In this document: positions 26,936-37,634 of the stretch, one piece after another
Numbering within the stretch: the first letter of the stretch is position 1
Layout of the letters: each line of letters opens with the position of its first letter
Virus record (IMG/VR): IMGVR_UViG_3300023243_000009
Span: 32,001-96,000 of that record
Direction: 5' to 3' (one strand)
From: a virus
DNA: 64,000 nucleotides
The notes under the pieces: generated by a model
Database searches by the model: none
What the model saw: the letters and a program-made list of their open reading frames with translations, nothing else
What the model was told of the DNA's origin: nothing
Program-made: the position numbers and the translations under genes

Positions 26936-27292
26936 TTAACTAAATGTAACCCATTCACCTTCTAAAGTGAATACTCTTCCATATTCTTCAAAATCGGAGC
27001 TTTCTAAACCACTTATCGAAGCCACAACCTCTGCTTTACTTAATACTTCACCTCTATCTCTATGATAAGCTACTGTTATACCCCTTCTAGGACTATTAAA
27101 TGAATGTCCACCTTCAATTGATACTTGTTCCCCTAAAATACTGATATCACCTAGGTTAATTAATGATTGAACTTTTTCTCTATTAGTATAGTGTTCTTTT
27201 AAAGTAACACCTACACCATCTTCACTACCATCATTGTGACAGTAAATTGAACTTACCGTTTTATCTTGATTTTCAATTGCAATTCTTGACCT
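26936..27292 (-). pseudogene. Start-less ORF (RSRIAIENQDKTVSSIYCHNDG...), 118 codons
   Basis: Hand-translated open frame resembling the common phage SIYCHxDG family; in-frame TAG three codons upstream and no start codon; begins at an A7 run inside 27253-27486. Confidence 0.6.
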
Positions 27293-27486
27293 TTTTTTAT
27301 AACCCTAAAATTTTTCTTAGGATCAATTTGGGCGTGCTTAATACCCACTATATCACCTAATCTAATAGATTCTTTAGTCCTCTGTGCTAATTGATTTTTT
27401 TTAATTTCAACCTTATTTTTAATCTGATTAAACTCATCTGGGTTTGAATTTATAATGAATTCTAACACTTCGTTTAAATTTAACAT
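27253..27486 (-). CDS. Hypothetical protein, probably truncated or fused at the A7 run
   Basis: Starts at the repeated leader; its tail overlaps the start-less ORF in the -1 frame. Confidence 0.6.
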   Translation of the reverse strand: MLNLNEVLEFIINSNPDEFNQIKNKVEIKKNQLAQRTKESIRLGDIVGIKHAQIDPKKNFRVIKKGQELQLKIKIKR

Positions 27487-27548
27487 AACCTTTGTTGTTT
27501 TAATTGATTCCTATACCCCAATATACGAAAGGTTTCCGAGATAACCAA
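27484..27548 (-). promoter_or_regulatory. Repeated promoter+leader module, copy 8
   Basis: Same motif ending at the ATG of 27253-27486. Confidence 0.8.
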
Positions 27549-27617
27549 ATGGGTATTAAGGGGATGACGCATGTGGGGATCATTACTATTCCAGTCACAA
27601 CCCTATTTAACATTTAT

Positions 27618-27736
27618 CTACATTTCTTTGCAATCTATAACACATTTACACCTATAATATGTGGCTGTCTATAACTCATGGTCATCTACAATATAAGGCC
27701 ATCTATAATATGTGGCTGTCTACAACTTTATTGTAT
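27618..27736. repeat. Degenerate 17-bp tandem repeat, 7 units
   Basis: Units start with CTA(C/T)A at 27618, 27635, 27652, 27669, 27686, 27703 and 27720; units 3 and 6 are identical. Confidence 0.75.
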
Positions 27737-28418
27737 TATGTTCCAACTTCCATATATTTTTTTGTGAATAATAAAAATGCTCACGTGTGGGGGAGGGGGA
27801 TAATGCAAGGGTGTGTATATACTTTTAGAGGTTTTAGAAATTGGTTGGAATCGATGTGGGAGGGTTAGCGTCTCCACCAACCCACCCCACATATTATTCC
27901 CACTTTGGTCACATACCCCATATGCTTTAAATATAGAATAACATATATTCATCTATCAACCCACACTTTAACAGTGTTGGTCACATTTACACATAAAAAT
28001 AAACATCCATTAATCTCAACACCCAATCATCTACATAATACGGGGCCATATACAACTAATAATCGAGGTTTGATATATCTCTTATAGGTACCACATTATC
28101 ATCAATTGGTTTGGGTTTAACACGTTGTATTTTTAATGTTTTCCTCCACTCCATAATTTGGTTAATACGTTGTTTTGCACTTGATTTACTCATGATTTAT
28201 TTATTTGATTTATTTGATTTATTTTTCTTCCCACACATATATTTCTCATCCCCGTCACTGGAATTTTATTTATATATCTCCTCTATGTTTGTTTTTGTTT
28301 TCCTCGTTTTGGTTTATATTCAGATACACCAGTATCCAATATTTTTTGACTATTATTTTCTGCTAGTATTTTTCTATACATTAATGACTCCATTTCGCAT
28401 CCCCAATAACTTTGCTTT

Positions 28419-28631
28419 TTATACATCTTCTATTATTTTAGCATCCTCTATTACCTCACATATAAGAAATTTACTACCCATTTGCAACACATGGTTACAA
28501 TTTTTCTCATGCACATACAAACCTAACACTTGTTGGTTTACACTTCCATCTTTATTTGCAAAATTATGAGTTGATATTTCCTCAATTATTTTGTATGCTT
28601 TACCCTCCTTGTACATTATGTTATAGTTCAT
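28419..28631 (-). CDS. Hypothetical protein
   Basis: ORF track; operon packing. Confidence 0.65.
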   Translation of the reverse strand: MNYNIMYKEGKAYKIIEEISTHNFANKDGSVNQQVLGLYVHEKNCNHVLQMGSKFLICEVIEDAKIIEDV

Positions 28632-28637
28632 GTTTGT

Positions 28638-28979
28638 CTAAAAATTTTCATTTAAATCATTATCAATTTCTAAACCATCCTCCCCATAATATTCATCTAA
28701 TAATTCTTCATCACTACATAAACATGCATCACATATGGGTCTCATAACCTGAGTGTTTAATAATTCATCATACACCAATAATTCTGCCTCTATCGCGGGA
28801 TCTAAATCAATAAAAGCCCAATTCGACTCCATTCCCCACACTTTGCTTCTCCCCAATTTATTTATCTTATCCTCCATAAATTCAAGGATAGGTATATACG
28901 GATTAGATGATGGTGGGTTGTTAGTTAAGCATCCACACCACCCACAATTGTTGGTATTTTTTGATTTATTTTCCTCCAT
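28638..28979 (-). CDS. Hypothetical Cys-containing (possible Zn-binding) protein
   Basis: CGWCGC and CDACLC motifs. Confidence 0.6.
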   Translation of the reverse strand: MEENKSKNTNNCGWCGCLTNNPPSSNPYIPILEFMEDKINKLGRSKVWGMESNWAFIDLDPAIEAELLVYDELLNTQVMRPICDACLCSDEELLDEYYGEDGLEIDNDLNENF

Positions 28980-28982
28980 ATT

Positions 28983-29213
28983 TTATAATAATAAATGTTT
29001 ATTTTCCAAATACATCCAAAATCTTTCAAGCCATAGGTTGATTTTTACTCCTTCTACTTCATCTTCTCCTAACATGCCATTGAGTTTTCTGCTAGCAGTA
29101 TATGCTATACCCATATCGATGCAGTCTCGAGCTTTATCCTTATCACCTAATTTAAAAAAATGTTTTGCTTGGGACAAACAGTGATGTAATATTTGTTTTT
29201 CTATTTTTGCCAT
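28983..29213 (-). CDS. Hypothetical protein
   Basis: ORF track. Confidence 0.6.
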   Translation of the reverse strand: MAKIEKQILHHCLSQAKHFFKLGDKDKARDCIDMGIAYTASRKLNGMLGEDEVEGVKINLWLERFWMYLENKHLLL

Positions 29214-29343
29214 AATTTTATTTTGTCTGTATTTATTTGAACTAAGTTATTATTCATTTTTACTAAAATATTACCGTTGAAATGAATGCCAAAGCATTTC
29301 TTTTTAATTCCCTCGAAGTTAACCCAATCTCCTTTCTTTACCA

Positions 29344-29751
29344 TTACAATTTATATTTTTGCTTGTAAACGTTGATTAAAGAATTCCCAACTCCTAATTC
29401 TAACACTTCAGCTGTATCCGGTATCCCTACTAACTTTAGGGAGGTTATGATATAGTCTATATTTTCATTAAAAATTTTCATTTTTATTTTAGAGTTAACA
29501 CGATTGGAATTTTTATATACTAAAACTACTACTTGGTTATTGTATGGTTTCTTTTTTTCAACCAATACCTTAGGATGTTTGTACCCCTTAGGTGGTGTAT
29601 ATTCTGTTTTATATGGACCATTAGGTACTTTATGTTTATTATAATACCATTTTGATACTCCCCCTATTTCAGGTTTTGAAGGAACTTCACACATAATCTG
29701 GGTGTACTTTATTAATGGTGATTTCTCTTCTATTGGTCTGCCTTTATTCAT
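29344..29751 (-). CDS. Hypothetical protein
   Basis: Starts at the repeated leader. Confidence 0.7.
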   Translation of the reverse strand: MNKGRPIEEKSPLIKYTQIMCEVPSKPEIGGVSKWYYNKHKVPNGPYKTEYTPPKGYKHPKVLVEKKKPYNNQVVVLVYKNSNRVNSKIKMKIFNENIDYIITSLKLVGIPDTAEVLELGVGNSLINVYKQKYKL

Positions 29752-29814
29752 AACCTTTATTGTTTTAATTAATTATTATACTTGAATATATGAAAAGTAA
29801 ATGTGGTAGCCCAA
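29749..29814 (-). promoter_or_regulatory. Repeated promoter+leader module, copy 9
   Basis: Same motif ending at the ATG of 29344-29751. Confidence 0.8.
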
Positions 29815-29861
29815 TTTGTTAGCGGATGTATTGTTTTTTAAGGTTGTGTGGGGTACCCATC

Positions 29862-29873
29862 GTTGTAAAAAAT
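29862..29873 (+). repeat. Lone GTT core (attI-like or secondary insertion site) at the array's left end
   Basis: GTTGTAAAAAAT without a left arm; complements the left core of the next site at 10/12. Confidence 0.55.
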
Positions 29874-30191
29874 TTAAATATTAAGTTCTTGATAGCTTAC
29901 CTTTTTCCCAAGCAATTTAACCTCTATAAACCAGTCAACATTATTACTTTTTAAAAATTTATTCCATTCTTTTTCTTTTTGCTTATAAACCGCTTTTGTT
30001 AAGTGTTTATGCCAATTTTCAAAATTCATTATATTAAACCGGTGTTCATTAATAACTATATTTTTACTATTTGCCTCACTTAACAAAAACTTCATATACA
30101 AGTCTTTTATATTAGCTTTATCGCATTCCCAAACATTGCTAACTTCTACCATATCCCATTGTTTATCGTGTATTTGTGTAATGTATATCAT
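29874..30191 (-). CDS. Cassette 1 hypothetical protein
   Basis: ORF track; stop abuts the GTT core box. Confidence 0.7.
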   Translation of the reverse strand: MIYITQIHDKQWDMVEVSNVWECDKANIKDLYMKFLLSEANSKNIVINEHRFNIMNFENWHKHLTKAVYKQKEKEWNKFLKSNNVDWFIEVKLLGKKVSYQELNI

Positions 30192-30198
30192 AATTTAA

Positions 30199-30341
30199 AC
30201 TTTTAACAACAACGTACAAAGAAAATAAACTACTATTCGCTTTCCGTTGTTCATTGTTTATTTGTGGGTTGTCGGTATTTCCGACATACCTCTATTTTTT
30301 TTAATCGTTTACTTTACTTGTACAAATCCGTTGGCAGTAAT
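30199..30341 (+). repeat. attC-like site 1
   Basis: ACTTTTAACAAC-AAC-GTACAA-AGAAAATAAAC ... GTTTACTTTAC-TTGTAC-AAATCC-GTTGGCAGTAAT. Confidence 0.8.
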
Positions 30342-30346
30342 AACTA

Positions 30347-30580
30347 CTAAGAGTACCATTTACCAATTTTCTCAAATTCTTCTACTACATCTTTACAATC
30401 TAATTGTTCTAATAAATCACAAAGCAATCCGTCAGCTATACAATGGCTTTTTGCATAATCCCTCTGTCCTTGTCTTTCTTTTAGTTCACTAATTACTGCT
30501 TTTTTAAAATCTAATTGTTTTTTGGTAAGTGCCATTTTATTAATATTTGTTTTTAATTTATCCGTTACTACTGCCAACAT
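30347..30580 (-). CDS. Cassette 2 hypothetical protein (start in the attC arm, or at the internal Met MALTKK)
   Basis: ORF track; MLAVV is encoded by the arm of site 2. Confidence 0.65.
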   Translation of the reverse strand: MLAVVTDKLKTNINKMALTKKQLDFKKAVISELKERQGQRDYAKSHCIADGLLCDLLEQLDCKDVVEEFEKIGKWYS

Positions 30581-30779
30581 CTTTTAAAGAAAAAAACTAA
30601 TTTATCCTTTTTAATAAACCAATTCTAACAAGTGGGTTATTGTTTTGGCTTTCAACTAATCTTTTACGATAATCTTGTAAACTTTCGTTTTTCTTTGGCA
30701 CTTTTATTAATTTTCCCATTTTTTACTTATTGTTTTAATTTATTCGTTTCTTTCCTTAAAAGGGTACGTTGTATTTAAT
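30567..30779 (+). repeat. attC-like site 2 (ORF in loop)
   Basis: ACTACTGCCAAC-ATC-TTTTAA ... TTAAAA-GGGTAC-GTTGTATTTAAT. Confidence 0.8.
30597..30719 (-). CDS. 40-aa ORF nested in the loop of site 2
   Basis: Hand-translated MGKLIKVPKKNESLQDYRKRLVESQNNNPLVRIGLLKRIN; A-rich leader. Confidence 0.5.
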   Translation of the reverse strand: MGKLIKVPKKNESLQDYRKRLVESQNNNPLVRIGLLKRIN

Positions 30780-30780
30780 G

Positions 30781-31038
30781 CTAATCTTTAGGCACATTAG
30801 CACAAACAGTTCCTTCTTCTTGGTGTGTTTGGTTAACAAGTGGATTGCCTCTTACGCTTAAATTAAATGGCTCAACATAACCTTCTTTAGCAAAATACCA
30901 TTTACCTTCATACTTAAATTCAAAACCGCTATCACGCATACAGATAGCCATTTCTTCACCATCACTTGTCTTTAATACAACAGATTTAAATACTTCTTCA
31001 AGTTGCATTATGTTTTTTTCGTTTACTGTAATTTTCAT
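30781..31038 (-). CDS. Cassette 3 hypothetical protein
   Basis: ORF track; stop 1 nt from the core box. Confidence 0.7.
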   Translation of the reverse strand: MKITVNEKNIMQLEEVFKSVVLKTSDGEEMAICMRDSGFEFKYEGKWYFAKEGYVEPFNLSVRGNPLVNQTHQEEGTVCANVPKD

Positions 31039-31068
31039 TTCATTTATAATTTATAGTTAATAACCCGC

Positions 31069-31213
31069 ACTAAAATACAACACCGTACAAAATTAATTGC
31101 TTGGTTTTGGTTTACTTGCGAACGTCCTCGCATCCTTTAACTTTATTTTTTATTTATTGGTTTTAGTGTTTTTTTTATCGCAACAAATCTTGTACGCGCA
31201 CGTTGTAACAAAT
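31069..31213 (+). repeat. attC-like site 3
   Basis: ACTAAAATACAAC-ACC-GTACAA-AATTAATTGC ... GCAACAAATC-TTGTAC-GCGCAC-GTTGTAACAAAT. Confidence 0.8.
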
Positions 31214-31257
31214 TATTTTTTATTAGGTTACTTTTCTGTTTGCAAATTATCGTAATT

Positions 31258-31377
31258 TCATTCCTCTTTTTCTTGGTCTGTTTGCAAAAAATCACTTGTA
31301 ACAACAACGTATAAATCATTATTACTGCTTAATGGGTTTCTAGAATAAAATTCATCTTTAAAATCTACTGGTCTCAT
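31258..31377 (-). CDS. Cassette 4 ORF (39 aa) starting inside site 4
   Basis: Hand-translated MRPVDFKDEFYSRNPLSSNNDLYVVVTSDFLQTDQEKEE. Confidence 0.45.
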   Translation of the reverse strand: MRPVDFKDEFYSRNPLSSNNDLYVVVTSDFLQTDQEKEE

Positions 31378-31435
31378 AATTAAGTTTTAGTTTATTTATC
31401 CGTAACAATGTTTATACGCATAAGTTGTAGTGCAT
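31294..31435 (+). repeat. attC-like site 4
   Basis: ACTTGTAACAAC-AAC-GTATAA-ATCATT ... AATGT-TTATAC-GCATAA-GTTGTAGTGCAT. Confidence 0.8.
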
Positions 31436-31440
31436 TAAAA

Positions 31441-31709
31441 CGACACCACAACAACGTGTATAGGTAATTATTGCCCTTGCTTCACTATCTTATAACCAAG
31501 TTCGTGCAAATCTTCAAGCAAACGAATAGTCATAGTTGTTTTAGGTGTTTTCTCAAAAAACTCATAACCTCGCTCTTTTATTATGTGCAGTAATATGTTT
31601 TGCTCTTCAGCATTTGCACCTCCAAATAATTGTTCTATCTCTTTCATAATTTATTTTATTTTAATTAAATCGGGCAAAAACTACCCATACATAAACCGTT
31701 AGCAGTAAT
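31441..31709 (+). repeat. attC-like site 5 (ORF in loop)
   Basis: CGACACCACAAC-AAC-GTGTAT-AGGTAATTATTGCCC ... GGGCAAAAACTACCC-ATACAT-AAACC-GTTAGCAGTAAT. Confidence 0.8.
31468..31647 (-). CDS. 59-aa ORF nested entirely in the loop of site 5
   Basis: Hand-translated MKEIEQLFGGANAEEQNILLHIIKERGYEFFEKTPKTTMTIRLLEDLHELGYKIVKQGQ; A-rich leader. Confidence 0.6.
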   Translation of the reverse strand: MKEIEQLFGGANAEEQNILLHIIKERGYEFFEKTPKTTMTIRLLEDLHELGYKIVKQGQ

Positions 31710-31710
31710 A

Positions 31711-31911
31711 TTAAATATCAATTGATTTAATTAATCCTTCCAGTTTTTCACGTGCGCCATCCCTAATGCTATGATAACCCCCAAGTTTGTTTTTACATAT
31801 ATCCATTGTGTTAATTAATGCATTTATCATTTGTGCTTTATCAGCCATACTAATGCTAACAACGTGTATATCACATTGCTGTTCTGTTTCTAGGTCTTTA
31901 CTTTTATCCAT
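31711..31911 (-). CDS. Cassette 6 hypothetical protein starting inside site 6
   Basis: ORF track; QCDIHVVSIS is encoded by the arm. Confidence 0.7.
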   Translation of the reverse strand: MDKSKDLETEQQCDIHVVSISMADKAQMINALINTMDICKNKLGGYHSIRDGAREKLEGLIKSIDI

Positions 31912-31989
31912 TTTATTTAGTTTATTACTTATTAAAAATTATTGTTTATCTACTCGCAACGCTACATACACAAATACGTTATATGCAAT
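31849..31989 (+). repeat. attC-like site 6
   Basis: ACTAATGCTAAC-AAC-GTGTAT-ATCACATTGC ... GCAACGCTAC-ATACAC-AAATAC-GTTATATGCAAT. Confidence 0.8.
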
Positions 31990-31990
31990 G

Positions 31991-32230
31991 CTAAATGTTT
32001 AATTGCTCTACTCGCCACGTTCGGTTTTTATGGTCTATCCATAGGCTTCTGCAATTTAATTGGTTTATTCTATCGCCGTAAATGTTTGTTACAAATCTAA
32101 AACCTCTCTTTTGTGCTTCTTCAGCGTCAATGCTTATAAATAATTGTCTGTACTTATCACGCACTTCAAATAACAACGTATAAAAAAAATTGCTACTTTC
32201 TCCATTTTTATAATCTAATTCTTTAAACAT
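31991..32230 (-). CDS. Cassette 7 hypothetical protein starting inside site 7
   Basis: ORF track; NFFYTLLFEV is encoded by the arm. Confidence 0.7.
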   Translation of the reverse strand: MFKELDYKNGESSNFFYTLLFEVRDKYRQLFISIDAEEAQKRGFRFVTNIYGDRINQLNCRSLWIDHKNRTWRVEQLNI

Positions 32231-32302
32231 AATTTATGATTTTATTTATTAATTTCACTATAATTAAACGCAACATTTCTTATACAATGCGTTGTAAACC
32301 AT
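32163..32302 (+). repeat. attC-like site 7
   Basis: ACTTCAAATAAC-AAC-GTATAA-AAAAAATTGC ... GCAACATTTC-TTATAC-AATGC-GTTGTAAACCAT. Confidence 0.8.
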
Positions 32303-32303
32303 A

Positions 32304-32471
32304 TTATTGTTTAGTTCCATCCATTAAATTACAAGCCTCGCATTGTCTTTGGCAAGTGCTTTCATAATGTGGGTTCTTGTGGTCATAACAATAAAACGAT
32401 TCAACAACACCGTATATAAAGCATTTTTTCTTTACTTTCTTTTTACTAAACAACCTACTAATCAAACTCAT
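32304..32471 (-). CDS. Cassette 8 Cys-rich 55-aa protein starting inside site 8
   Basis: Hand-translated MSLISRLFSKKKVKKKCFIYGVVESFYCYDHKNPHYESTCQRQCEACNLMDGTKQ. Confidence 0.6.
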   Translation of the reverse strand: MSLISRLFSKKKVKKKCFIYGVVESFYCYDHKNPHYESTCQRQCEACNLMDGTKQ

Positions 32472-32544
32472 TTTTTATCTATTAATTAGTTTTGTTGCTT
32501 AATTCAAGGTCGCAACGTACCTTATACAATTCGTTGGTAGTTAT
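32396..32544 (+). repeat. attC-like site 8
   Basis: ACGATTCAACAAC-ACC-GTATAT ... TTATAC-AATTC-GTTGGTAGTTAT. Confidence 0.75.
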
Positions 32545-32551
32545 TTTTTAT

Positions 32552-32698
32552 TTATAGATAATTAAAGATTATTATTAATAATAAAAAGCCTATTAATAGT
32601 AAAAAAGTAAATTTAATATCAAAAAAACAAATGCCAACATCTTTTATAACAAATTGCTTTTTATTTACTTTTTTACTAAATTGTTTATATTCTATCAT
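32552..32698 (-). CDS. Cassette 9 single-TM 48-aa protein starting inside site 9
   Basis: Hand-translated MIEYKQFSKKVNKKQFVIKDVGICFFDIKFTFLLLIGFLLLIIIFNYL. Confidence 0.55.
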   Translation of the reverse strand: MIEYKQFSKKVNKKQFVIKDVGICFFDIKFTFLLLIGFLLLIIIFNYL

Positions 32699-32766
32699 TT
32701 ATGTTATATTTATTTACTAATTATTAATTTACGCAAAATGCAATAAAAGGGTACGTTGTAAGTAAT
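32627..32766 (+). repeat. attC-like site 9
   Basis: ACAAATGCCAAC-ATC-TTTTAT-AACAAATTGC ... GCAAAATGCA-ATAAAA-GGGTAC-GTTGTAAGTAAT. Confidence 0.8.
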
Positions 32767-32774
32767 ATTATTTA

Positions 32775-33074
32775 CTATCTTTTTGCTGCACTTGTAGAGC
32801 TACTGCTTAACGCGCCTATACCTAATATAAATCCGAAGTCATACCAACCTCCGTTATTATTTACAGCATATATTGCTATATCGCTACTAAACAAACTACC
32901 TATCCATGCAAATGGTGCAATCATTCCGTGCCAAAGTCCTCCCCAAAATCCATAAGGAGCAACTGTGGTACACGCTTCTATATTAGAGACATCGGCACAT
33001 CCCGTAAATAAGACTACAACCAACAACGTGTATAAAAAATACTTACTAATTCTGTTTAAATTTACTTTTTTCAT
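32775..33074 (-). CDS. Cassette 10 lipoprotein-like membrane protein starting inside site 10
   Basis: LFTGC lipobox; GFWGGLWHG...NNNGGWYDFGF motif. Confidence 0.75.
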   Translation of the reverse strand: MKKVNLNRISKYFLYTLLVVVLFTGCADVSNIEACTTVAPYGFWGGLWHGMIAPFAWIGSLFSSDIAIYAVNNNGGWYDFGFILGIGALSSSSTSAAKR

Positions 33075-33154
33075 CTTTACTTATTTTAATTATTAATATT
33101 AAATTCTATTTATTTTTACTCGTACATTTTATACACAAATACGTTGGCAGTCAT
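33013..33154 (+). repeat. attC-like site 10
   Basis: ACTACAACCAAC-AAC-GTGTAT-AAAA ... TTTT-ATACAC-AAATAC-GTTGGCAGTCAT. Confidence 0.8.
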
Positions 33155-33183
33155 TATTGTAAAAAGGCCACATATATTACGGC

Positions 33184-33393
33184 CTATATCGTGTCTAAAT
33201 GATAACTAATTATTCTTTCTTTTATTTCTTTGTCAGACAATTCTTTTATGGATTGACAATTAAATATGTATTTTTTATTATCAAATAAATCAATTAAATT
33301 ATATTCTGCTGAATAAGTATAACTACCGTGATTAACAAAAATTCTAAAATTTTCATTATCATTATTGTGTTTTACTACTAGATTATTTATCAT
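33184..33393 (-). CDS. Cassette 11 hypothetical protein c
   Basis: ORF track. Confidence 0.6.
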   Translation of the reverse strand: MINNLVVKHNNDNENFRIFVNHGSYTYSAEYNLIDLFDNKKYIFNCQSIKELSDKEIKERIISYHLDTI

Positions 33394-33450
33394 TTTTTTT
33401 TAATATATACTTATTTAAAATAGCTTTTAATTTTAATTTTTTTATTCATT

Positions 33451-33672
33451 TTATTTACCGCAATGCATTTCACAAAGACCATGTTTATTTTCAAATATAA
33501 CTCCTTTATTTGTTTTATTACAATCGTGTTCCACTATACAAGCAAACATATTAGTAGCTTCATTAGAAGCTCCTTGGTTTATCTTATTCCAAGGATGTTT
33601 AAATAACTCAATTTGGTTTTTACAATTACAACAGCATTCACCACTATGCCATCCTTTATCACATTTTATCAT
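33451..33672 (-). CDS. Cassette 11 Cys-rich protein b
   Basis: GECCCNCKNQ...HGLCEMH motifs. Confidence 0.65.
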   Translation of the reverse strand: MIKCDKGWHSGECCCNCKNQIELFKHPWNKINQGASNEATNMFACIVEHDCNKTNKGVIFENKHGLCEMHCGK

Positions 33673-33800
33673 TAGTTCTGGTTTTGTTTTTTATCAAAAA
33701 TATTTAGCATATCTATTAAGTAGTAGATGGTCATAATTAAAAAATACACCCAAAATATAGGGTTGGTTAAAATAAAAAACTTATCTCCGTTTGTGTTCAT
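33672..33800 (-). CDS. Cassette 11 small TM protein a (42 aa)
   Basis: Hand-translated MNTNGDKFFILTNPIFWVYFLIMTIYYLIDMLNIFDKKQNQN; TAATG overlap. Confidence 0.5.
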   Translation of the reverse strand: MNTNGDKFFILTNPIFWVYFLIMTIYYLIDMLNIFDKKQNQN

Positions 33801-33849
33801 ATATTATGTATTTTAATTTTAAATAAAATTAATGGGGTTTTATAAAATA

Positions 33850-33981
33850 ACTGCAACCAACAGCGTGTATAATTTATTAACAAATTTACTAAATTAACAT
33901 CAATCTACCAAATCTATTTTTATAGTGTACTTTTATTAATCACATAGTTAACAAACTATACACGCATAAGTTATATGCAAT
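33850..33981 (+). repeat. attC-like site 11
   Basis: ACTGCAACCAAC-AGC-GTGTAT-AATTTATTAAC ... GTTAACAAACT-ATACAC-GCATAA-GTTATATGCAAT. Confidence 0.8.
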
Positions 33982-34169
33982 TAATCGGTGGTCTGTGTTA
34001 TTTTAACACCTCCTTGTATGCTGCCAAACGCACACCCTGCAAATAATAACCAATTCCATCCATATTCAAATGTTCCGTTTATAAAATCAACAATATGTAA
34101 TGCTAATCCTATTCCGCATACAAGAAGTAGCGTCATTCCCCAAATAAAAGTTCTTGTTTCTTTAGTCAT
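33981..34169 (-). CDS. Cassette 12 two-TM membrane protein
   Basis: ORF track; stop overlaps the core box. Confidence 0.65.
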   Translation of the reverse strand: MTKETRTFIWGMTLLLVCGIGLALHIVDFINGTFEYGWNWLLFAGCAFGSIQGGVKITQTTD

Positions 34170-34224
34170 TTTTATAAGTTTTATTTATTAATTAATATTT
34201 GTTTCTATTTATACGCTACTAGGC

Positions 34225-34247
34225 ATACACAATGCTTTGTAAAAAAT
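34225..34247 (+). repeat. Degenerate attC-like right arm (GTT mutated to TTT)
   Basis: ATACAC-AATGC-TTTGTAAAAAAT; left arm not confidently located. Confidence 0.55.
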
Positions 34248-34390
34248 TAAACCTTACTTACTGTTTTTTTAATAAAGTAATCGTATTGTCCTTTTAATTC
34301 TATTAATTCTTTAGAGGCTTGTCTTCTGCAAGCTTTCCTATAAGCTGGGTTTTCTTGCTCCCACCATTTAAATCCTGTAAATCCTTTCAT
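34247..34390 (-). CDS. Cassette 13 hypothetical protein (47 aa)
   Basis: Hand-translated MKGFTGFKWWEQENPAYRKACRRQASKELIELKGQYDYFIKKTVSKV; stop overlaps the core box. Confidence 0.55.
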   Translation of the reverse strand: MKGFTGFKWWEQENPAYRKACRRQASKELIELKGQYDYFIKKTVSKV

Positions 34391-34397
34391 CTGTTTA

Positions 34398-34548
34398 AAA
34401 TTTCACAACAACGCACAAAGAAAATAAACTACTTATCGCTTTCCGTTGTTTAGTTATTATTAATTTACGTTCTAATAAGTATAATCTAAATTTATATTTT
34501 ATTTTATAAATCATCGTTTACGTTTTTTATATATTCCTTAAAAGGTAC
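34398..34548 (+). repeat. Degenerate terminal attC-like site 13
   Basis: Left arm and first part of the loop nearly identical to site 1; right arm broken, no GTT core. Confidence 0.6.
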
Positions 34549-34549
34549 T

Positions 34550-34969
34550 TTAACTACAATATTTAATAAAGTTATCCAGCAACCCTTTTATATTATCTGC
34601 ACCAACGGGGTTTGCGGAGTGTATAAATATCCTGGGTAATTTTTTCTGGTTGTCCATGCAATAATCTACTAACCATTGGGCACAATCCATTCCTGTTTTT
34701 TCCTTGTAACTCTCACCACGCCATTCTTGAAATTTTTTACTTTCATCATAATCTTCCCAAAAATATTCAGGTGTATAATGCTCATCCGCTAAATCGTGGT
34801 CGAAAGAAATAGCATCAGGTAACCCAAATATTCCAATCCATTTTACAAACTGTTCATAATTCAAAACCCAATTTATATTATAATCTCCACCATCCGCATC
34901 TGTTGGTACTTTACCTTCTTCATTTATAAAAGGGTTTCTAATATCGTCTAACCAAAGTAAGTTCTTCAT
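34550..34969 (-). CDS. Cyclic-phosphate-processing receiver-like domain protein
   Basis: LWLDDIRNP, ISFDHDL, TGMDCAQWL and IHSANPVG motifs. Confidence 0.75.
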   Translation of the reverse strand: MKNLLWLDDIRNPFINEEGKVPTDADGGDYNINWVLNYEQFVKWIGIFGLPDAISFDHDLADEHYTPEYFWEDYDESKKFQEWRGESYKEKTGMDCAQWLVDYCMDNQKKLPRIFIHSANPVGADNIKGLLDNFIKYCS

Positions 34970-35003
34970 TTATTCTTTTTTTTATATTTAAATTAATTGT
35001 ATA

Positions 35004-35441
35004 TTATTTTTCAATACTTTTAATGTGGGTACAGCGTCCATCTTTTGCTCTAATAGCTCCAAAGCAGTTACAACTATATTTAATTGAACCATCTAATTGA
35101 GTTGATTCCTTAGTTAGATATTCTTTATCCCCTTTAGATGAAATAAATCTATGGGTTATTACTTCAATTTTAAATTTTGCTTTTGGTTTAGGTTTATCCC
35201 ATATGATATCCTTTAAGTTGGTTTTTGGGTGAACTTCAACCCAACCTGGCATTAAATAATGCTTGCCACCTATGTTGGTTAACATTGGAGGATTGAAACC
35301 ATTAATATGTTTATATGTAAATCTTTTGACATAATGTACCGGACCAAATCCATCACTTACACTTAAACTTCCTTCAGAGTGTACTATACGAGTTCTAAAA
35401 TTTCTATGCTTATTTAGAGTACTAATTTCCCAAAGTGCCAT
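35004..35441 (-). CDS. SWIM zinc-finger protein
   Basis: C-terminal YSCNC...CTHIK. Confidence 0.7.
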   Translation of the reverse strand: MALWEISTLNKHRNFRTRIVHSEGSLSVSDGFGPVHYVKRFTYKHINGFNPPMLTNIGGKHYLMPGWVEVHPKTNLKDIIWDKPKPKAKFKIEVITHRFISSKGDKEYLTKESTQLDGSIKYSCNCFGAIRAKDGRCTHIKSIEK

Positions 35442-35557
35442 TATTTGTAATCTTGAAGTTGAATTTCTGAATATTTAATTGCCTGAGCCTCAGTGAGACC
35501 TAGGTTCATTCCAATTCCAAACCAGTATTCTAAAATTTCTTGTTGATTTAATAACAT
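35441..35557 (-). CDS. Small hypothetical protein (38 aa)
   Basis: Starts at the repeated leader; TAATG overlap. Confidence 0.55.
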   Translation of the reverse strand: MLLNQQEILEYWFGIGMNLGLTEAQAIKYSEIQLQDYK

Positions 35558-35622
35558 AACCTTTATTGTTTTAATTGATTAACATGCCGGAATATACGAA
35601 GTAAAATTTACATATACAAGCC
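35555..35622 (-). promoter_or_regulatory. Repeated promoter+leader module, copy 10 (nearest recognisable promoter upstream of the cassette array)
   Basis: TTCGTATATTCCGGCATGTTAATCAATTAAAACAATAAAGGTTATG. Confidence 0.8.
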
Positions 35623-35631
35623 TTTCATTAT

Positions 35632-36144
35632 TTATTTTTTAAAAATTAATTCTCCTTTTCTTCTTGATATAGTCTGATATCCAGGTATTGTTTTCAGTTG
35701 ATGGAGAATGTATGCTTTATATAAATTAGATTTTTGAATTTTTTCTCCTTGTTTTTCTGTAGCTTCTATATAAAGTACATTAGGATCCTCAGATAATATA
35801 AAATCTTTTATAACGGAGATTACAGTTGATAAAATAGTTAATAAAGTTTTTATATCACTTTGAGCAAATTGGACCTCATCTCCACTTACATCATAACCCA
35901 CATTGTAAGTTTTATCCAAGTCTTGAAGATACCTTGGTAAATAGAATTGTTTTGATATTAAATCCGGATCAAAATTATCAAATTCTACTACAACTCTCTC
36001 ATTAAATCCCCCAATATTTACTGTAAATCCATACTTAGTAGGGCTTACCTGTTTCCAATCTAAGGGTGGAATATTTGATTCCCCTATTTCTTTAATTAGA
36101 ATTTCATTTAAAAGAGGAACCATTAAAGTTGACATTTTACTCAT
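35632..36144 (-). CDS. Hypothetical protein
   Basis: ORF track; degenerate leader/promoter upstream. Confidence 0.65.
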   Translation of the reverse strand: MSKMSTLMVPLLNEILIKEIGESNIPPLDWKQVSPTKYGFTVNIGGFNERVVVEFDNFDPDLISKQFYLPRYLQDLDKTYNVGYDVSGDEVQFAQSDIKTLLTILSTVISVIKDFILSEDPNVLYIEATEKQGEKIQKSNLYKAYILHQLKTIPGYQTISRRKGELIFKK

Positions 36145-36219
36145 AACATATACAGTTTTAGTTGATTAATGTACAGGAATATATGAAACACATCCCATGT
36201 AAAAAATAACCCCATATCT

Positions 36220-36450
36220 TTAGAATATGGGGTTTAAGAAATGCAAATCAAGAGATAGGGCGTAACAAAACACACCTAGTTTGTTGTGTTTATGAAGGTA
36301 AATAAGATCACTATCATTCATCTGTTTTAAGAGACTTTGAATAACCCTTTCTTCTTTATCTTCCTTGACCATTATAGCCTTTTTCATAATTTTTACTTTT
36401 TTTTGTTTTTGAAGTTTTGCTTTTTGAATGAACTCCTTTTCTTTTAACAC
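36220..36450 (-). CDS. Hypothetical protein
   Basis: ORF track. Confidence 0.5.
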   Translation of the reverse strand: MLKEKEFIQKAKLQKQKKVKIMKKAIMVKEDKEERVIQSLLKQMNDSDLIYLHKHNKLGVFCYALSLDLHFLNPIF

Positions 36451-36527
36451 TACCCTTAGGTGTAACAGTATTTACAATAGTTTTTGCCATATTTTTTTTT
36501 GTAATAAATATGGGTTAAAACCAATCT

Positions 36528-36836
36528 CTACCCTTTATTTTTAAAGATGGTGATAATATTTTGAATTTTAGTACATCTTTCATAATCCTCGTAGTTCTCC
36601 ATTATCTTTAGATTTTGCATTAATGTCTCAGGTATATCTTGGGGGTCAACACATATATCAAAATTCATCTTCGAATCCTTAGTATGAATGGATAATATAG
36701 GGATAGTTTTTTTCCTATTTCTATAATGCAATAAAACCTCATCCACAATTAAATTATGGAGGTTTTTATCATTTTCCATAAATAACATTTCCATTTCCTT
36801 TTCAGTTTCAATCTTCCACTTATGTTTAAATTTCAT
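36528..36836 (-). CDS. Hypothetical protein with UVR-like end
   Basis: ENYEDYERCTKIQ. Confidence 0.6.
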   Translation of the reverse strand: MKFKHKWKIETEKEMEMLFMENDKNLHNLIVDEVLLHYRNRKKTIPILSIHTKDSKMNFDICVDPQDIPETLMQNLKIMENYEDYERCTKIQNIITIFKNKG

Positions 36837-36992
36837 ATTAAAAATTTTTTAAAAAATTATCATTAATTTTCTTACCCCGTAATATATGAAATTTATCCTG
36901 GATATCCAACAATTTACTGGCAAGTTTTTTTAAAGTTTTGGATTTTTGTTTATCGTAGTCTTTAATTATTTTATTGTGGTTTTTATTCTTCA

Positions 36993-37634
36993 TTACATTC
37001 GACTAATATATTGGTTAGTACTATCTTCGTCATCATCCCCCAATCCTAATTCCTTTAAACGTTGTAAGTGATATTCATCCATTTCAAAATTAACAGCGTC
37101 TGTAGTATTATTTAAAGGTGTGTGGGATTCTATTTGTTTTTCATCAATAGCGTTAAAAACATCCCCAACATATAAAAAGTAATGGTTATAACATAGTAAT
37201 TCAATATTATTCTGGTTATAGTTATTCCCGTTTTTATCTTTAAAGTGTAATAAAAGTGGAACTCTATAATCTAATACTCTACGTTCACTGAATTTGCATA
37301 TTGAACATTCTTCTTCCAGATATCCTTCTTCAATTAAACGATATTTGATTTTAGAGGGATTAAAATGTGAAGGAGATATCTTACCTTCTATTATATCTAA
37401 TAACGCAGGATCTTTCTTACCATTATTTAAAAACTTAGGTATGCCTTTTCCACTTTGGTTTTTATGTTGGTCAAATAGATTTTCATAACCCTCCTTAGTA
37501 GCTTCATAATTTTTAGCATGTCTTTTATAATGTTGATATGAAACATGAAGGTAGCGGGCGCTAGCCATATTAGATTTTGTTTTAGCCATTGCTGCTAAAA
37601 TTTGAGTCTTACTTAAAGGTTTGGGTTGTGGCAT
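36993..37634 (-). CDS. HNH-like zinc-binding nuclease-domain protein
   Basis: CSICKF...LLLHFKDKNGNN...NIELLCYNHY. Confidence 0.65.
   Translation of the reverse strand: MPQPKPLSKTQILAAMAKTKSNMASARYLHVSYQHYKRHAKNYEATKEGYENLFDQHKNQSGKGIPKFLNNGKKDPALLDIIEGKISPSHFNPSKIKYRLIEEGYLEEECSICKFSERRVLDYRVPLLLHFKDKNGNNYNQNNIELLCYNHYFLYVGDVFNAIDEKQIESHTPLNNTTDAVNFEMDEYHLQRLKELGLGDDDEDSTNQYISRM

Follow-up and report, generated by a model that had tools for sequence, protein, structure and literature searches.

A probable integrase-less integron-type cassette array in a variable spot of a T4-like phage contig

In integrons, the crossover takes place between the G and the TT of the R' core (G|TT), and core boxes that match across a cassette are a classic consequence of it. 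Among T4-type phages, the mobile regulatory cassettes known as promoter-stem-loop (PeSL) cassettes, which Arbiol et al. are said to have described in 2010, reportedly combine an early promoter with a short hairpin and move by homologous recombination. The Vibrio cholerae superintegron is a sedentary chromosomal integron cassette array, with Vibrio cholerae repeat (VCR) attC sites of ~120-130 nt (reviewed in PMC8618304). Clusters of attC sites lacking an integrase (CALINs) were published in virulent phages, including Polaribacter phage P12002L, by Qi et al. 2023 (Front Microbiol, PMC9892861). These CALINs hold at least 2 predicted attC sites each, 2-3 in the illustrated ones, and 5 of the 6 phage attC sites tested recombined with attI1 under IntI1 (PMC9892861). 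In Bacteroidetes, IntegronFinder 2 found only In0 elements and one complete integron (Salinibacter). Here we analyse a 64,000-nt window that covers bases 32001-96000 of an IMG/VR viral contig (138.7 kb, with an estimated completeness of 85%), and in it a cassette array at 29862..34549 (+ strand) with 12 intact G|TT boundaries and 2 degenerate ones.

This array is very probably an integrase-less integron-type cassette array, a CALIN, placed in a variable spot of a T4-like phage and moved by G|TT recombination. At the level of sequence, it shows phages apparently taking part in cassette exchange. What we observed directly are the complementarity statistics, the membership of the sites in a Flavobacteriaceae repeat family, and homology blocks of cassette size that end at G|TT.

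Complementarity across cassettes and shared cassette blocks

Positions 29862-33981 contain 11 two-armed sites and 1 right half-site, all in + strand orientation. Left arms were anchored on AAC with a 3-nt spacer and the L'' box, right arms on GTT. The left arm consists of a variable 9-nt stretch with AAC at its end, then the spacer (A-N-C) and L'' (GTRTAYA, GTACAA or TTTTAAAG); the right arm is a complementary L' box, a 5-6-nt spacer, and GTT with 9 variable nt that mostly end AT. Pairing continues inward, TTGC after L'' with GCAA before L', and the L boxes differ among sites but remain complementary. The loop between L'' and L' is ~90-100 nt long, and the core-to-core distance is 111-127 nt in 9 sites; the other two measure 192 nt and 248 nt. 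The attC layout, imperfect inverted repeats R''-L''...L'-R' with asymmetric spacers, is thus present in 11 sites.

The first-pass annotation of this DNA had proposed that core boxes match across each cassette and not within each site, and our counts bear this out. Over 12 nt, right arm i and left arm i+1 match at 10, 11, 10, 10, 8, 10, 9, 6, 9, 8 and 7 positions, whereas the two arms of one site, for sites 2-12, match at 7, 7, 7, 6, 3, 6, 5, 6, 7, 8 and 8. The permutation test that the annotation had suggested left out the invariant AAC/GTT (9 positions per pair, 99 in total) and used 200,000 random left-arm assignments. Adjacent pairs have 7, 8, 7, 7, 5, 7, 6, 3, 6, 5 and 4 non-core matches of 9, a sum of 65/99, against 40.8 for random assignments (standard deviation 4.4, maximum 63), none of which reached 65. 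The own-site pairs, with a sum of 37/99, are at chance level (p = 0.78). The pair formed by sites 8 and 9 is a weak exception, with 6/12.

On recount, the across-cassette scores previously given for sites 1, 2, 4, 6, 7 and 9 were identical, the near-ties at sites 10 and 11 were found again, and each of the 12 boundaries listed is a G followed by TT. Some own-partner scores were off by 1-3, depending on the left-arm register. Sites with a common inner right arm do diverge just past GTT as had been remarked, with site numbers that were off by one: counted from 1, the pairs are 7/11 (ATACACAAATAC-GTT) and 5/12 (ATAC..GCATAA-GTT), not 6/10 and 4/11.

The same rule holds in another phage contig (L012) and in the chromosomal host arrays presented below, where the across-cassette value is 8.7 versus 6.5 Watson-Crick pairs of 12 (120 cassettes); in the array of Olleya, consecutive pairs match at 11/12. 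Left arms start AC and right arms end AT, so that position 11 of the R box (window 30340 vs 30568, for example) carries a conserved A·C when read on the top strand; read on the bottom strand, it is G·T. Of the host cassettes, 100/120 have it, as do 13/16 of the phage cassettes.

According to the integron model, recombination between G and TT of R' would leave the bases after GTT with the next cassette, with whose own R'' they would formerly have been paired, so that core boxes would match across the cassette and not within the site. The exchange of whole cassettes can be followed in other genomes, as the first-pass annotation had recommended. Cassette a (29863-30330) recurs at 99.4% identity in IMG/VR contigs L152-L154. 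In the alignment with L152, the two DNAs are unrelated before G29862, near-identical across cassette a, and divergent past GTTGGCA at 30336; this block of identity is the behaviour predicted for a cassette that carries its own R' remainder. In this 16.5 kb contig, cassette a lies between two full sites within another array, and nothing beyond the shared cassette matches the phage backbone around the window array.

Similarly, Cellulophaga phage Nekkels_1 carries an 84% homologue of cassette g (31979-32291). The homology starts on the left at 31979/80, within 1-2 nt of G|TT, and spans the gene and most of the attC loop; the L'/R' end has been lost. Differences by codon position (11/8/21) and an intact 79-amino-acid (aa) frame in both copies indicate that the antisense open reading frame (ORF) of cassette g is a real gene. 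Moreover, contigs of other salt-lake runs depart from the reference at four R' cores (31423/4, 32293, 30771 and 33142). A crossover at the left-arm AAC was also considered, and was ruled out in the case of cassette a and of the Nekkels_1 block, where the downstream attC loop travels with the gene. Blocks bounded by AAC nonetheless exist: 30575-30772, the inner attC of site 3 with its 40-aa ORF, is 96% identical in L152, its edges being R'' AAC and R' GTT, and the outer R'' 12-mer can differ. Homologues of cassette genes in phi17:2, LR756500 and L151 stand outside any attC context.

A repeat family of marine Flavobacteriaceae and an associated recombinase

Viral contigs and bacterial genomes were scanned with an exact structural pattern derived from the phage sites. 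The pattern matched 10 other viral contigs and more than 120 stretches of bacterial genomes, nearly all from marine Flavobacteriaceae (Polaribacter, Mangrovimonas, Olleya, Kordia, Aquimarina, Tenacibaculum, Winogradskyella, Psychroserpens and Psychroflexus). A covariance model, R1, was then built from 39 diverse bacterial array sites only, no phage site being included; in the consensus stem of their alignment, 8 of 13 pairs show compensatory changes. In the window, R1 finds 9 sites at full length (41-91 bits, E 3e-19 to 1e-7), all on the + strand, and has no match outside the array. Since a model made from bacterial sites alone recovers them, the phage sites are judged to belong to the host array repeat family and not just to resemble it. 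A scan with an exact regular expression and structure (perfect 7-bp L boxes) had recovered only 3 sites; it was superseded by hidden Markov models of the arms, then by the host-derived covariance model. An Rfam scan of 27000-37000 gave no family match. In the rest of the 138.7 kb contig, R1 has one weak match (genome 28719-28822, -, 21 bits, E 0.007), on the opposite strand ~3.2 kb before the window start, which may be a lone degenerate site.

The bacterial arrays, with repeats of ~145 bp, were examined in five Flavobacteriaceae genomes (G006-G010), including Olleya (L144), Polaribacter (L145) and Kordia (L146), and also Aquimarina and Mangrovimonas. In 5/5, the best match to the integron-integrase models lies directly upstream of an array of such sites and is co-oriented with it. 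In Olleya, the recombinase gene is at 519436-520248 and at least 20 sites extend from 521206 to 543579 (L144 corresponds to G006:C1:518500-532500); a site comes after every ORF and shares its orientation. In Polaribacter, the gene at 145617-146426 accompanies at least 64 sites over 90 kb. The bacterial loops have G+C-rich internal hairpins, which most phage sites have lost. Our literature search found no paper describing these marine Flavobacteriaceae arrays.

On the viral side, the 138.7 kb contig has no match to PF00589 or TIGR02249. Tyrosine recombinases, serine recombinases and Y1 transposases are all missing from it, as they are from a complete array-carrying phage of 95.7 kb. The latter has terminal repeats and a near-identical partial copy (contig L013) with at least 11 sites. 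The 135-aa gene beside site 1 was considered as a recombinase and rejected, having no Pfam or PHROG match and a 51% homologue at a site-free locus of a relative phage (L002/L003). The adjacent intI tyrosine recombinase of a complete integron is thus lacking. With 12 sites in 4.1 kb on a recombinase-free contig, the array is classed as a CALIN.

The host array recombinase is a Xer/IntI-like tyrosine recombinase of 380-430 aa with an extra N-terminal region of ~100 aa. The Olleya protein (L144:634-1821) reaches 193 bits with TIGR02249 (cut-off 265); the match is split in two and leaves out model positions 182-237, where the IntI-specific insertion is located. With NF040815, the Olleya protein reaches 214 bits (cut-off 220). 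Its best matches in the PDB are XerA/XerC-like, then VchIntI4 in two stretches, and database names for the host enzyme are mostly 'tyrosine-type recombinase/integrase' or XerD. By these matches, the host array recombinase is not a canonical IntI. In the most economical reading, this enzyme would work on the phage sites in trans during infection, would act on their folded bottom strand, and the cassettes would pass through a circular form. The bottom-strand fold is more stable than the top-strand fold in 11/11 sites, with small energies. Together with the G·T at position 11, this preference would fit recognition of the bottom strand, the energies being too small to serve as proof.

Sites, cassette genes and carrier phage

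All attC-type sites described here are on the + strand. Site 1 (29840..29873), the junction between phage backbone and first cassette, is a right half-site only (GGGGTACCCATC-G|TTGTAAAAAAT); searches for its left arm found none. Site 2 (30199..30341; R'' core AAC 30208, G 30330) scores 54.1 bits with R1 (E 1.2e-10). Site 3 (30567..30779) is long, with 192 nt from AAC to G and the L box TTTTAAAG/CTTAAAAG, and its loop encloses the 40-aa minus-strand ORF (30597-30719). The most host-like is site 4 (31070..31213), full length at 90.8 bits (E 3.4e-19), with a non-coding loop; site 5 (31294..31435) follows with 49.2 bits (E 1.6e-9). Site 6 (31441..31709), long as well at 248 nt, is seen by R1 weakly and in halves only (31438-31511 and 31667-31709), and a 59-aa ORF (31468-31647, -) lies entirely between its L'' and L'. 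Two genes, in sites 3 and 6, thus sit wholly within attC loops. The next sites are 7 (31849..31989; 68.5 bits, E 5.2e-14), 8 (32163..32302; 58.0 bits, E 1.4e-11), 9 (32397..32544; 41.0 bits, E 1.3e-7) and 10 (32627..32766; 52.8 bits, E 2.4e-10). Site 11 (33013..33154; 55.3 bits, E 6.2e-11) has its left arm in a lipoprotein gene, and site 12 (33850..33981) scores 42.4 bits (E 6.3e-8).

Two degenerate sites follow. A right arm at 34210..34247 (CATACACAATGC-TTT-GTAAAAAAT, core G changed to T at 34236) was recognised by reading and has no R1 match. Degenerate site 14 (34396..34560) has the right arm CCTTAAAAGGTAC-TTT, with a mutated core that overlaps the stop codon of the gene 34550-34969; its left half is 85% identical to that of site 2. 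The boundaries delimit cassettes at 29863-30330, 30331-30768, 30769-31202, 31203-31424, 31425-31698, 31699-31978, 31979-32291, 32292-32533, 32534-32755, 32756-33143 and 33144-33970, then two terminal cassettes with degenerate ends, 33971-~34236 and ~34237-34549.

The ORFs of the array are all on the - strand. A typical cassette carries a promoterless ORF upstream of its attC and in the same orientation, an arrangement that is not found here. In five further viral contigs, 39 of 42 cassettes are antisense; in about half of these, the ORF starts within attC, so that a recombination arm doubles as coding sequence. In several window genes, the left arm falls within the N-terminal codons. The left arm of site 11, for example, is inside the signal-peptide codons (..YTLLV..) of a 99-aa lipoprotein gene (32775-33074, -), whose homologues in phi17:2 and phi4:1 come without attC. 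Read by eye in gene orientation, with no formal scan made, the sites display neither a shared promoter-like motif nor a consistent Bacteroidetes -33/-7. In host arrays, the longest ORF is sense to attC in 101 of 120 cassettes, and 7 of 14 antisense host cases come from one phage-like contig binned in an archaeal metagenome-assembled genome (MAG). The median cassette length is 1145 bp in hosts versus 426 bp in the window and L012 together. One possibility is that the uniform antisense orientation reflects a shared, orientation-locked phage cassette pool.

Antisense cassettes of this phage type occur in L012, L013, L048, L004 and L152, down to 255 bp holding ORFs of 66-69 aa. L048 (JAVEPM010000137.1), binned as a Methanolobus MAG, is 5.7 kb long and has 12-13 sites with short antisense cassettes like those of phage arrays; this contig is probably a piece of phage DNA that was binned wrongly.

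The carrier contig has a G+C content of ~30%, and its minus strand holds nearly all ORFs. Its genes include those for a baseplate wedge protein, GroEL and glycosyltransferases, and its PolB is 30-34% identical to gp43 of T4-like cyanophages. We read the carrier as a distant T4-like, lytic-type marine myovirus of roughly 140-160 kb, with marine Flavobacteriaceae as its likely hosts. Near-identical DNA is present across many salt-lake metagenome runs, and homologues of 2 cassette genes occur in phages of Cellulophaga.

In the relative phage L002/L003 (9187-10408), homologues of 29344-29751 and 35004-35441 are almost adjacent and the whole array stretch is missing; the flanking gene there is 51% identical in amino acids to its window counterpart. 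The array and the gene that follows it would thus form a variable spot. That gene (34550-34969, -) encodes a cREC_REC (cyclic-phosphate processing receiver) protein (PF20274, E 5e-20), and the array ends at its stop codon. A gene with a weak PHROG match to HNH endonucleases (36993-37634, -) lies 2.4 kb past it. A 74-nt direct repeat of 78% identity is found on both sides of the array (35527-35600 vs 27459-27529).

Competing explanations and comparison with known systems

Several observations weigh against a CALIN that is mobile by G|TT recombination. The phage itself encodes no recombinase, its sites being presumed active during infection, and the host array recombinase falls under the IntI cut-offs (TIGR02249, NF011946) and lacks the IntI-specific insertion. 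All cassettes of the window and L012 (16/16) are antisense to attC, the opposite of host arrays, which simple capture of host cassettes does not predict. Some breaks form a second class and coincide with the AAC of the R'' core (30575, 33859, 30208), not with G|TT. These AAC-edge breaks are not predicted by a simple G|TT model and may stem from near-identical inner attC sites in different cassettes, or from rarer exchanges at R''. Both terminal sites have a mutated TTT core (near 34236 and 34549). Folded as single-stranded DNA with nearest-neighbour energies, the 140-nt sites do no better than shuffles (z -1.7 to +2.2). The circularise-and-fold check proposed in the first-pass annotation favours the circularised form over the array form by only about 0.7-0.9 kcal/mol, which adds little either way. 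As to the claim made there that the units moved as circles, its G|TT footprint is well supported; the circular form itself leans on the established integron mechanism, and the metagenome contigs, fragmented Logan contigs, yielded no circular junction. Candidate joints from these contigs had sides of 22-38 nt, within repeats, and were not used.

The alternative that survives best, an unlikely one, is that G|TT recombination put the cassettes together in another place or in the distant past and that the array is now inert DNA, the footprint being its scar. A recombinase-free contig, the TTT core at both end sites, the 6/12 of the pair 8 and 9 and the thermodynamically weak hairpins would all suit such a fossil. 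It accords poorly with cassette a, whose 99.4% identity in an unrelated backbone speaks for recent transfer at the level of the cassette, and with the several alternative R'-core junctions in metagenomes from the same habitat. In addition, 10 of 12 sites retain all core features, and 9 are found at E < 1e-7 by the host model.

Much less credit can be given to ordinary homologous recombination between dispersed ~145-bp repeats, in the manner of PeSL and free of any site-specific enzyme. T4-like phages recombine avidly, identity between sites goes up to 85-96%, and some breaks are at R'' AAC instead of G|TT. Yet the breaks at 29862, 30330-36, 31423/4, 31979, 32293 and 33142 are on the 3-nt core, not random within the repeats, and this process would neither create nor keep a 12-nt complementarity across each gene. 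Nor does it account for the same repeats adjoining a tyrosine recombinase in 5/5 bacterial genomes.

Hardly to be entertained is an RNA-level element, in which the 12-mers would bracket ORFs in phage mRNA as processing or stability stems under selection for RNA pairing: in the phage, it is the mRNA-sense strand that permits G·T/U at position 11, and bottom-strand folds are the more stable in 11/11 sites, but bacterial sites, on the opposite strand relative to genes, have the same pairing and position-11 pattern, start codons lie outside the proposed stems, Rfam has no match, and the cassette-sized homology blocks are left unexplained.

Beyond the integron-type array itself, we would put forward a wider idea, tentatively and short of favouring it. 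Phages of marine Flavobacteriaceae may keep an integron cassette pool of their own, made of compact 250-500 bp units with antisense genes, in which the attC loop serves as 5' leader and N-terminal coding sequence. These units would be exchanged among unrelated lytic phages via a borrowed, non-canonical host recombinase without the extra domain of IntI. If this were true, integron-type recombination would be a regular engine of accessory-gene turnover in phages, not an occasional stowaway.

The across-cassette footprint is textbook integron biology, expected for integrons, and its confirmation mainly certifies a real cassette array; small CALINs have been on record in virulent phages since 2023. 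What is new is an array of 12-14 sites, the near-uniformly antisense phage ORFs that often start inside attC, and a host recombinase without the IntI-specific domain. Several other viral contigs, among them a complete 95.7 kb genome, have similar arrays, and integron-type recombination may shape hypervariable regions of phages well beyond the illustrated CALINs of 2-3 sites. In marine Flavobacteriaceae, there appears to be an undescribed, large family of integron-like arrays, whose recombinase without the IntI domain bears on how integrons are defined and detected. Antisense ORFs that overlap attC raise the question of how cassettes are born and expressed.

With PeSL, the array shares small ORFs in a hyperplastic T4-like region, with a repeated stem-loop element ahead of each ORF to which the shuffling is ascribed. 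Unlike PeSL, the window elements have distant arms, AAC/GTT cores and cassette-specific outer arms, as well as bacterial counterparts linked to a tyrosine recombinase. The V. cholerae superintegron has the same R''-L''...L'-R' layout with AAC/GTT cores, a near-uniform core-to-core length of about 120-125 nt, the G|TT crossover with the R' remainder going with the next cassette, and many small ORFs of unknown function. The phage array differs in having no integrase, attI or cassette promoter Pc, in a loop that is largely unpaired instead of a near-perfect palindrome, in antisense ORFs that overlap the site, and in a lytic-type phage as carrier.

The phage CALINs of Qi et al. are likewise integrase-less attC clusters in lytic phages, one of them infecting Flavobacteriaceae. 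They were recognised with generic attC models and have 2-3 illustrated sites, whereas the window array has 12-14 and clear across-cassette statistics. Moreover, the window array has uniformly antisense genes, has one cassette in common with another genome at 99.4%, and its sites are tied to a specific host repeat family. The closest relatives are the Flavobacteriaceae arrays, which differ from the phage array in longer cassettes (1145 vs 426 bp), sense ORFs (101/120) and an adjacent recombinase, and which share with it the same site family, the R-box rule, the position-11 mismatch and the spacing of the boxes.

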